Source: an uncultured Gammaproteobacteria bacterium (GTDB lineage: Bacteria; Patescibacteriota; Microgenomatia; Woykebacterales; RBG-16-39-9b). From it: a stretch of 64,000 bases of DNA. A program made the position numbers and the translations under genes. Location of the stretch: assembly GCA_964349395.1 (NCBI GenBank), contig CAYGGA010000001.1, positions 65,991 to 129,990 on the forward strand. Reading direction: 5' to 3'. The notes under the pieces are model-generated. The model was not told where the DNA came from. It saw only the letters and a program-made list of their open reading frames with translations, and ran no database searches. Below, in pieces: positions 59,173 through 60,112 of this stretch. The number at the start of each line of letters is the position of its first letter. The stretch's first letter is position 1.

Positions 59173-59904
59173 TTGTCCTACCGCCGCATACGCCCTTCCA
59201 AACCACATAAATTAGCATTTTACCCATTGAGCCGTTTAATATTATGTTCGTTCTGTAACCAGGATATGTCCGTGGGTCCATCAACTGGTGGGAGTGGTAA
59301 AAAACTTCTGTATGCTCGCTGTGATACTAAAGGCTGTCCTAGAAAGAAAAAATCCATTAGATCAAAGATCATTTTTAATTTTGTCTATGAATTCCTGGAG
59401 GACGGACTCAATCTGTCCGAAAAGGAATATAAGGATTACTACAGTAATATGGCAAGACTAACGGAGGAAACCCGCCGAGAAAGTCGAGCTGAGATACATA
59501 ATCGCCAAGGTGTTCTCAAGTTTGTGAAAGGTGAGATTACTGATCGAAGTCTGAATCTGGTCAAATTGGATAGCAAAAGCAGAGCGTACAAAGAAAACCA
59601 AACGAAGATTGAGGAGCTGGAGTACGAGGAGAGGGAGCTAATCCAAGAAATAGAAAAACTACAAAGCGAGATTAGGAATCCCGAAACAGACAGGCTATCC
59701 ATAGAACAGTTTTTGAACTTGTCGAAAAACGCTGCTCTAGTAGTCCAATCTGCAGACGCGCGTGTTAAGGACATTATTTGCCGTGAAATATTCTTGAACT
59801 TGACTGTAGATGAGGCGAAAGTACTGTCCTATCAGCTCAAAGAGCCATTCGCTACACTACTAAAACAGCGCCAACTACTATCTGGTCGGGGCGACACGAT
59901 TTGA
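59173..59904 (+). pseudogene. C-terminal fragment of a large serine recombinase (zinc-ribbon + coiled-coil domains only)
   Basis: 243 aa. CSFCNQDM...YARCDTKGCPRKK recombinase zinc beta-ribbon, then a long coiled coil. Resolvase catalytic and recombinase domains are absent upstream. Adjacent to tRNA-Pro. Confidence 0.55.
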
Positions 59905-59957
59905 ACGTGCGACCTCTCGCTCCCAAAGCGAGCGCGCTACCACTGCGCCACGCCCCG
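59883..59957 (-). tRNA. tRNA-Pro(TGG)
   Basis: 75 nt. Acceptor CGGGGCG/CGCCCCG. Anticodon stem CTCGC/GCGAG. Loop TTTGGGA. T-loop CGTTCAAATCG. Confidence 0.85.
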
Positions 59958-60089
59958 ATATTTAACAAACCCTCTCCACTTCAAAGTTGTACTAAGACGC
60001 TTTAAAAAGCGAGCGGCTTCCTCGGAATTTTTACGCTCGGAGCGAAGTCCTCACTAAAATTCCGATCGGAGCCAAGCAGTTGTCTCCTC

Positions 60090-60112
60090 ACCACTGCGCC
60101 ACGCCCCGATAT
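60090..60112 (-). repeat. 23-bp exact direct repeat of the tRNA-Pro 5' end (att-like)
   Basis: accactgcgccacgccccgatat is identical to 59939-59961 (tRNA 5' 19 nt plus 4 nt flank). The copies are 151 bp apart. Confidence 0.6.

Follow-up and report, generated by a model that had tools for sequence, protein, structure and literature searches.

An intact tRNA-Pro gene between a truncated serine integrase gene and a broken partial tRNA copy, probably the relics of two separate selfish elements

The locus described here lies in a 64,000-nt stretch of contig CAYGGA010000001.1 (the window), from an ultra-small bacterium of the Patescibacteria. An intact tRNA-Pro(TGG) gene on the minus strand is followed at its 3′ end by the C-terminal part of a gene for a large serine recombinase (LSR) and preceded at its 5′ end by a second copy of its own first nucleotides. 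The gene order at the locus is HAD hydrolase, tRNA-Pro, bcp. A sequence-only reading of this DNA had reported the tRNA gene, the recombinase open reading frame (ORF), and the repeat, all of which were found where it had placed them. It had joined them into one decayed integrative element whose attachment (att) sites, attL and attR, were the two copies of the repeat. Our analysis points instead to one intact tRNA-Pro gene that is probably flanked by two unrelated relics of separate selfish elements, a half-integrase gene on the 3′ side and a broken partial tRNA copy on the 5′ side. The tRNA gene and the features on its integrase side are the following.

59883 to 59957, minus strand: intact tRNA-Pro(TGG) gene (ARAGORN; Rfam RF00005, 67.9 bits).
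59134 to 59904, plus strand: C-terminal LSR remnant (tblastn homology to intact LSRs and alignment).
59883 to 59889, no strand assigned: attR-type junction TGGTCG↓G between the recombinase frame and the acceptor-stem 3′ end of the tRNA (window position inferred by homology).

For comparison, 148 related loci were fetched from genomes and metagenomes (L numbers below). Two of them, L006 and L008, are independently assembled metagenome contigs in which the whole arrangement is 100% identical to that of the window; it is therefore not an assembly artefact. Two other independent short-read contigs stop within the tRNA gene, L007 at window position 59916 and L009 at 59938, the latter a single base short of the proximal 23-bp repeat copy. 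These ends may reflect a repeat-induced assembly break or strain heterogeneity at the site.

Analysis of the ORF on the 3′ side showed that it is an N-terminally truncated LSR, as the sequence-only reading had proposed. Called mechanically, it runs from a TTG start at 59173 to 59904 on the plus strand (243 aa); its reading frame is open from 59134 (256 codons), which is also where homology to LSRs begins, and its final 22 nt overlap the 3′ end of tRNA-Pro. When 41 intact LSRs were compared with the window by tblastn, the best match was 61% identical over 256 aa (E=2e-97; query residues 260-514), and the remnant was the only credible match in the 64 kb. It corresponds to residues ~257-516 of the intact proteins: it begins with the last part of the recombinase domain, continues through the zinc ribbon (CxxC...CxxxxxC) and a putative coiled-coil region, and closes with the conserved tail ..EQFLNLSKNA..SYQLKEPFATLLKQRQLLSGR↓GDTI followed by the stop. 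The four zinc-binding Cys residues are kept (CSFC...RCDTKGC), and the zinc-ribbon region (PF13408) is ~60% identical to that of intact LSRs. In a hidden Markov model search, which the earlier reading had proposed as a check, the one Pfam domain of recombinases matched by the window ORF was Zn_ribbon_recom, below threshold at 20.5 bits against a cutoff of 25.3 (one of the LSRs passes it, with 26.6 bits), and kinship with recombinases was confirmed by tblastn with the intact LSRs. The coiled-coil part gave weak matches only, to DivIC and APG6_N in Pfam and, when solved structures in PDB were searched by sequence with the C-terminal profile, solely to the unrelated coiled coil of UspA1. It is thus homology to intact relatives, not the Pfam match, that identifies the ORF as a recombinase. 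The catalytic part is missing. The Resolvase domain (PF00239), which holds the catalytic serine and scores 76-81 bits in the relatives, was not found in the window ORF, and the Recombinase domain (PF07508) is gone except for its very end, at residue ~257, where the homology starts. Upstream N-terminal remnants, which the earlier reading had suggested looking for, were found neither by translating 58990-59910 in all frames nor by tblastn with the 41 intact LSRs over the 64 kb. The deletion edge is crossed by a minus-strand ORF of 26 codons at 59067-59147, which encodes a hydrophobic peptide (MKSSSLTAGYQVVAVSIAGAIIAALS) and has its start within the initial 14 nt of integrase homology. The 3′ ORF is almost certainly the relic of an LSR-driven integrative element and, judging from the missing serine domain, would be incompetent for recombination.

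A scan of one genome per species with C-terminal LSR peptide patterns returned 63 loci, and intact versions of the element were found at tRNA-Pro in many genomes. Nearly all of the loci with informative record titles are from Patescibacteria, mostly Microgenomates. Many metagenome-assembled genomes with the Patescibacteria-type locus (L010, L011, L015, L018, L020, and others) have records titled 'uncultured Gammaproteobacteria' or 'Pseudomonadales', labels that look unreliable. Intact LSR ORFs of 511-552 aa, with Resolvase, Recombinase, and Zn_ribbon_recom domains, are present in 41 loci. In about 50 of the 63, the LSR gene overlaps the 3′ end of an opposite-strand tRNA-Pro gene (TGG, GGG, or CGG) by 6-18 nt; tRNA-Leu(GAG) is the target in two loci and tRNA-Val in one. 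Since the gene so regularly ends in the 3′ end of tRNA-Pro, the window ORF appears to be the tRNA-side (attR) relic of such an island. The islands are only ~3-5 kb in size, with a small cargo that varies (NYN, DUF4238, RibD_C, and an HTH_17 excisionase-like gene). Remnants abutting the tRNA in other genomes retain from 25 to ~368 residues or codons, and L001 and L004 carry frameshifted or stop-ridden integrase copies that end in tRNA-Pro. In L021, integrase C-terminus remnants, each joined to an arm with the P′ motif described below, are stacked to the left of an intact island (6800-6847 and 7560-7782), which indicates repeated integration at one tRNA-Pro gene. A word-indexed protein search with the window remnant had hinted at a conserved family of C-terminal-only proteins: all 29 homologues were N-terminally short, many of them ending in ..SRG/GRG(RRTRT..VPNDA), the reverse-translated tRNA 3′ end. 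Such a family was rejected because the genome scan showed most relatives to be intact. The tRNA neighborhood also varies. In L004, L021, L030, L033, L039, L040, L044, L060, L063, and L065, tRNA-Pro(TGG) is directly preceded by a co-oriented tRNA-Leu(TAA) gene; that of the window (57538-57624) is 2.3 kb from tRNA-Pro, on the opposite strand and beyond the integrase remnant, a displacement that suggests a local rearrangement.

The attachment sites of the family could be mapped in several of these loci. Four of them (L012, L021, L053, and L063) have a second copy, 3-6 kb to the left, of the sequence in which the integrase gene stops and the tRNA gene ends; the identity between attL and attR covers 12-19 bp and runs up to TAGTCG/TAGT at the tRNA 3′ end. 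To the right of the left copy, three of the four (L012, L021, and L063) have the P′ pattern AACAGGAGCGAYGAATATTGAAC or a close variant, which resembles a tRNA T-arm. At 8 loci the P′ core TCGAACAGGAGCGA is present on the expected strand, and its distance to the left of the integrase stop is 2-5.3 kb. As read from these alignments, the crossover of the family is at the tRNA 3′ terminus (..GTCG↓G), not in the D-loop. A repeated tRNA fragment is absent from most intact relatives, as would be predicted for serine recombinases. Scans of the window found neither the attL P′ motif of the family (..GTCG↓AACAGGAGCGA.., with up to 2-3 mismatches) nor a second copy of the tRNA-Pro 3′ end or junction (11-mer scan), and thus only the attR side survives there.

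The mapped attL sites revealed a further feature of the family. Ten of them (L015:7803, L021:6845, L021:7641, L028:3, L030:5486, L030:6832, L033:166, L035:7359, L039:6610, and L063:6291), together with the proteins P0004 and P0012, were examined for a reading frame past the crossover. A conserved open frame of 43-56 codons (RTGAMNIELLLPLANSII.HWKIGTFEQIMLIKNN...YEY and a stop) was present at 9 of the 10 sites, the frame at L021:6845 having only 13 codons. This means that the integrase of an excised circle would carry ~45 extra C-terminal residues, and that integration would swap in 1-18 residues encoded by the tRNA gene. The attP-spanning tail may be a state-dependent isoform or a directionality switch; no description of such a tail was found in the searchable literature.

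The feature on the 5′ side of the tRNA is the 23-bp repeat ACCACTGCGCCACGCCCCGATAT, which consists of tRNA positions 1-19 and 4 nt of upstream flank (ATAT). As had been reported, it occurs in two exact copies (59939-59961 and 60090-60112), 151 bp apart from start to start. It is not a common repeat in the window, where no further copy with up to 3 mismatches was found and none is expected by chance. The sequence-only reading had taken the two copies for attL and attR of the serine-recombinase element after its excision or erosion. An integrase remnant and a partial tRNA duplication do occur here at one tRNA, and partial tRNA copies are usually the att scars of integrated elements (PMC9897764). 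However, several observations argue against this pairing. First, both copies are 5′ of the tRNA and beyond the ORF end at 59904, leaving the integrase outside them, and no direct repeats bracketing the integrase were found. Second, attL/attR identity in the LSR family stops at the tRNA 3′ terminus, and the P′ motif that marks attL is missing from the window. Third, a tRNA-fragment repeat is lacking in most intact relatives, as noted above. Finally, similar 5′ duplications occur at tRNA-Gly, tRNA-Arg, and many other tRNA genes with no LSR nearby. The 23-bp repeat is very probably not the att pair of the LSR island, and the attL/attR reading of it is hardly credible. For annotation, this is a caution that a partial tRNA copy beside an integrase gene is not necessarily the att site of that integrase.

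Further analysis of the 5′ side gave the following features.

59939 to 59961, minus strand: proximal 23-bp copy, positions 1-19 of the functional tRNA and upstream ATAT (exact repeat search).
59962 to 60005, minus strand: 44-nt spacer tail between the pseudo-anticodon-stem piece and the functional tRNA (no similarity, no coding remnant).
60006 to 60018, minus strand: pseudo-tRNA segment AGC-CGCTCGCTTT, tRNA positions 20-33, 13/14 matched with one deletion (alignment).
60019 to 60089, minus strand: 71-nt D-loop insert between tRNA positions 19 and 20, with the palindrome TCCGATCGGA (60061-60070) and a GGAATTTT...AAAATTCC hairpin (alignment and folding).
60090 to 60112, minus strand: distal 23-bp copy, 5′ end (positions 1-19) of a likely pseudo-tRNA-Pro with its ATAT flank (exact repeat search).
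60121 to 60149, minus strand: promoter-like site TTTACC-17 nt-(TG)TAAAAT, 8 nt upstream of the distal copy (consensus scan only).

Read in the direction of the gene, the region at 59958-60112 contains tRNA positions 1-19, the 71-nt insert, positions 20-33, and then unrecognizable sequence. On this alignment, the distal copy likely begins a partial pseudo-tRNA-Pro, and the 23-bp repeat would exist because the pseudo-copy and the real gene share their 5′ end. The pseudo-copy is located between the functional tRNA and the promoter-like site, which is the presumed promoter of tRNA-Pro by its consensus; a consensus scan between the two 23-bp copies found no other promoter-like site. Nothing similar to the 44-nt tail was found, and a GIY-YIG profile had no match in it. 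Rfam over 58900-60300 gave tRNA as its sole match. A group I intron was rejected as an explanation, with no Rfam intron match either in that interval or in 13 related loci. A mirror image of the tRNA-Pro arrangement is seen at tRNA-Lys(CTT) in the same window (30280-30355), of which an exact 18-nt copy of the 3′ end (positions 59-76) lies at 30162-30179, 118 bp off on the 3′ side of the gene; the 100-nt spacer is rich in GC hairpins, and no integrase is nearby.

Similar 5′ duplications recur in the relatives. A survey of 143 tRNAs, from the related loci and the window, gave 10-11 with an exact upstream copy of their 5′ end that stops at positions 16-25 (tRNA-Pro in L014, L026, L063, L068, and L069; tRNA-Gly in L021 and L039; tRNA-Arg in L046 and L053; and the window). 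In L069, L063, and L026 the pseudo-copy resumes past a D-loop hairpin insert of 26-41 nt, and the spacers of L014, L026, and L039 each encode a GIY-YIG protein of 80-88 aa (PF01541, E~1e-15) co-oriented with the tRNA. The stop codon of these three ORFs (L014:8037-8276, L026:1851-2114, and L039:3866-4114) falls within the first ~12 nt of the downstream tRNA, so that RNase P cleavage of the precursor would take the stop codon off the mRNA. A metagenome scan with an alignment of the three proteins as the query returned 80 loci, about 58 of which have a co-oriented tRNA within 200 nt, of nearly every tRNA identity. Some trends were apparent among them. First, the tRNA is just downstream in 41 loci, and in 30 of these its 5′ part is duplicated upstream of the GIY-YIG ORF. 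Second, where the tRNA is upstream (16 loci), tRNA fragments occur nearby in 9, mostly as 3′ pieces downstream of the ORF. Third, the upstream pseudo-copies are often broken at the D-loop or anticodon loop by palindromic inserts of 20-106 nt; the inserts are clean, or a hairpin of exactly the same length replaces the anticodon arm. Finally, a perfect 20-nt palindrome, CCTGCCTGCCGGCAGGCAGG, recurs in pseudo-tRNAs that vary in identity, with insertion points from position 17 to 32 (L085:1451, L086:128, L090:156, L104:254, L107:1448, L129:1199, L136:26, and L148:177 and 722). In 7 of the 8 loci its distance upstream of the GIY-YIG start codon is 36-62 nt; the copies in L148 are 129 nt upstream and downstream of the ORF. 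At tRNA-Pro genes, GIY-YIG cassettes were found in L014, L026, L084, and L096. No description of this pseudo-tRNA/GIY-YIG architecture was found in the searchable literature.

The window shares two traits of this architecture, as we defined it from the loci of the relatives: a co-oriented 5′ pseudo-copy that starts from position 1, and a loop insert after which tRNA sequence resumes. By analogy, the chances are about even that the window pseudo-tRNA is an ORF-less, decayed form of a GIY-YIG homing-endonuclease-type cassette. The same traits bear on a different origin, in which the repeat would be the att scar of another integrative element, perhaps one encoding a tyrosine integrase, whose attP contained the 5′ end of the tRNA and of which deletion has left 128 bp. 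Such a scar would account for copies that are exact over 23 bp, with identity reaching 4 nt past the tRNA, and for a spacer of unique sequence, but it does not predict that tRNA-like positions 20-33 resume after a 71-nt insert. Moreover, no integrase remnant was found between or beside the copies, and where the architecture recurs elsewhere it holds GIY-YIG genes, not integrases. Known tRNA-targeting integrases also restore the 3′ part of the gene and not its 5′ part, as Williams reportedly described in 2002. We regard this second kind of scar as improbable.

Several points weigh against the reading of two dead relics of selfish elements, and on the 5′ side against a cassette origin in particular. 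First, no GIY-YIG coding remnant (PF01541) was found in the spacer or in the 64 kb (tblastn and six-frame profile searches), so that it is architecture that ties the window to the cassettes. Second, the resumed tRNA match (positions 20-33) is short (P~0.008), its exact 10-mer being reached in 16 of 2,000 shuffles. Third, the fold of the spacer is not exceptional (z=-1.2 sense, -2.1 antisense), and the 71-nt insert and 128-bp spacer gave only chance-level 9- to 16-mers by blastn-short against the window and the 148 loci. Fourth, 7 of the ~10 5′ duplications of the first survey have no ORF, and an origin without any nuclease gene is therefore possible. Fifth, the integrase remnant is still open over 256 codons and may retain a function. 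Finally, the C-terminal patterns of the locus scan detect only those remnants that keep the C terminus, and the graded series of remnants is partly a sampling effect.

The fourth point favors an origin with no mobile element, in which slippage or unequal crossover simply duplicated tRNA-Pro in tandem and the upstream copy then decayed and took up unrelated small insertions. An example of what such an event could leave behind is L068, where pseudo-tRNA and tRNA stand head to tail with zero spacer and a GACCA microhomology. Neutral decay, however, should not keep positions 1-19 and the flank 100% identical while the rest becomes unrecognizable, and this pattern repeats across loci. Nor does a plain duplication fit the clean palindromic inserts and exact-length anticodon-arm hairpin replacements in the pseudo-copies, or the presence of one 20-nt palindrome across differing pseudo-tRNA identities. 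A decayed tandem duplication is a live rival to the cassette origin, though a rather unlikely one.

The fifth point bears on whether either relic is functional. The integrase piece, a zinc-ribbon and coiled-coil (ZD-CC) fragment, could be a domesticated att-binding protein that blocks integrations, or the pseudo-tRNA leader could regulate tRNA-Pro. Besides the open frame, the intact zinc-binding Cys residues and conserved tail would fit the former, as would the 210-aa product (P0001) that gene callers predict; for the latter, production of the tRNA requires transcription through the leader. Against this, remnants of every length within the range given above, as well as frameshifts and stops, occur elsewhere, as neutral decay predicts, and the spacer has an unexceptional fold and no homologues. 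A function for either relic appears quite improbable, and as two dead relics the locus would be of little consequence for the cell.

The history that we propose for the two relics is as follows. The island would have integrated at ..GTCG↓G of tRNA-Pro, so that its integrase gene reads into the opposite-strand tRNA. Because the crossover falls on the final acceptor-stem nucleotides, the tRNA gene is not broken by it. Later, a deletion would have removed the catalytic half of the integrase gene, the cargo, and attL, leaving the tRNA-proximal 770 bp; the alignments show the homology and its sharp edge at ~59134. The C-terminal piece would survive because deletions cannot reach into an essential tRNA. 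On the 5′ side, by analogy with the relatives, a GIY-YIG-type cassette may have invaded the tRNA gene with a compensating partial duplication, its ORF being lost later. The tRNA-Pro would now be transcribed with a leader of ~155 nt and freed by RNase P. Elsewhere in the window, a sequence of ~97 bp occurs three times at spacings of 0.7-1.4 kb (47610-47706, 48275-48368, and 49717-49813; 90-96% identical by blastn).

The locus itself is an ordinary pair of relics; both parent families, however, have unusual and apparently undescribed features. Taking the two sides jointly, we tentatively suggest, as a possibility somewhat short of even, that the pseudo-tRNA is the footprint of an undescribed class of selfish cassette widespread in Patescibacteria-like genomes and, separately, that the tRNA-Pro islands have an attP-spanning integrase tail. 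If so, a GIY-YIG gene for ~80 aa, often with a palindrome, would enter essential single-copy tRNA genes of any identity, persisting by duplicating part of the tRNA and riding its promoter. The order of pseudo-tRNA, palindromic insert, small GIY-YIG gene, and full tRNA is repeatable at many tRNA genes and suggests a route by which a homing-type nuclease gene could enter essential single-copy genes of minimal genomes. In the islands, the last ~45 integrase residues would be encoded across attP, and the difference between the excised and integrated isoforms could serve as a built-in directionality switch in elements too small for an obvious recombination directionality factor. The attR, attL, and crossover region are now mapped for very small Patescibacteria islands whose family of serine integrases is specific for tRNA-Pro. 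This phylum lacks genetic tools, and compact site-specific integrases are in demand.

Comparison with known systems places the two relics as follows. The intact relatives of the integrase have the same domain order as phiC31-, Bxb1-, and A118-type LSRs, namely Resolvase, Recombinase, and zinc ribbon with coiled coil. Thermotogota proviruses with serine recombinases are likewise inserted beside tRNA genes, including tRNA-Pro (bioRxiv 10.1101/2020.11.07.368316). As in those proviruses, the integrase of the family is at the edge of the element beside the tRNA gene, with little or no long att duplication. Unlike known LSR elements, those of this family are tiny, confined here to Patescibacteria, and have a reading frame that crosses the att core, and the window copy has lost its entire catalytic half. 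The integrase of SSV1-type fuselloviruses, a tyrosine recombinase, has attP inside its gene, which is split mid-gene and inactivated on integration. In the LSR family, too, integration would alter the integrase coding sequence, the last ~45 codons being left at attL and 1-18 tRNA-encoded residues gained, but it is the C-terminal tail alone that would be exchanged.

On the 5′ side, partial tRNA copies are classically 3′ att scars (RNA Biol 2023, PMC9897764). In those scars the 3′ part is duplicated and brackets an integrase-bearing island, whereas in the window it is the 5′ part, only 128 bp are bracketed, and the partial copy has an internal insert. Group I introns are carried by tRNA genes of Patescibacteria at positions 35/36 or 37/38, in a single tRNA copy from which they self-splice (mSystems 2026, PMC13011429). 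The window insert resembles them in interrupting tRNA gene sequence in the same phylum but differs in that it is 71 nt long, sits in the D-loop of a redundant pseudo-copy, and matches no group I intron model. Endonuclease ORFs of fungal mitochondria bring with them a duplicate piece of the host gene. In phage T4, SegB is a free-standing GIY-YIG homing endonuclease encoded in a tRNA gene cluster (PMC2330249). Unlike either of these, the related cassettes are chromosomal, encode only a catalytic domain of ~80 aa with no DNA-binding domain, and are flanked by pseudo-tRNA pieces with palindromic inserts, and the window copy lacks the nuclease gene. What the cassettes have in common with these systems is a GIY-YIG gene among or inside tRNA genes and a partial duplication that keeps one copy of the host gene working.

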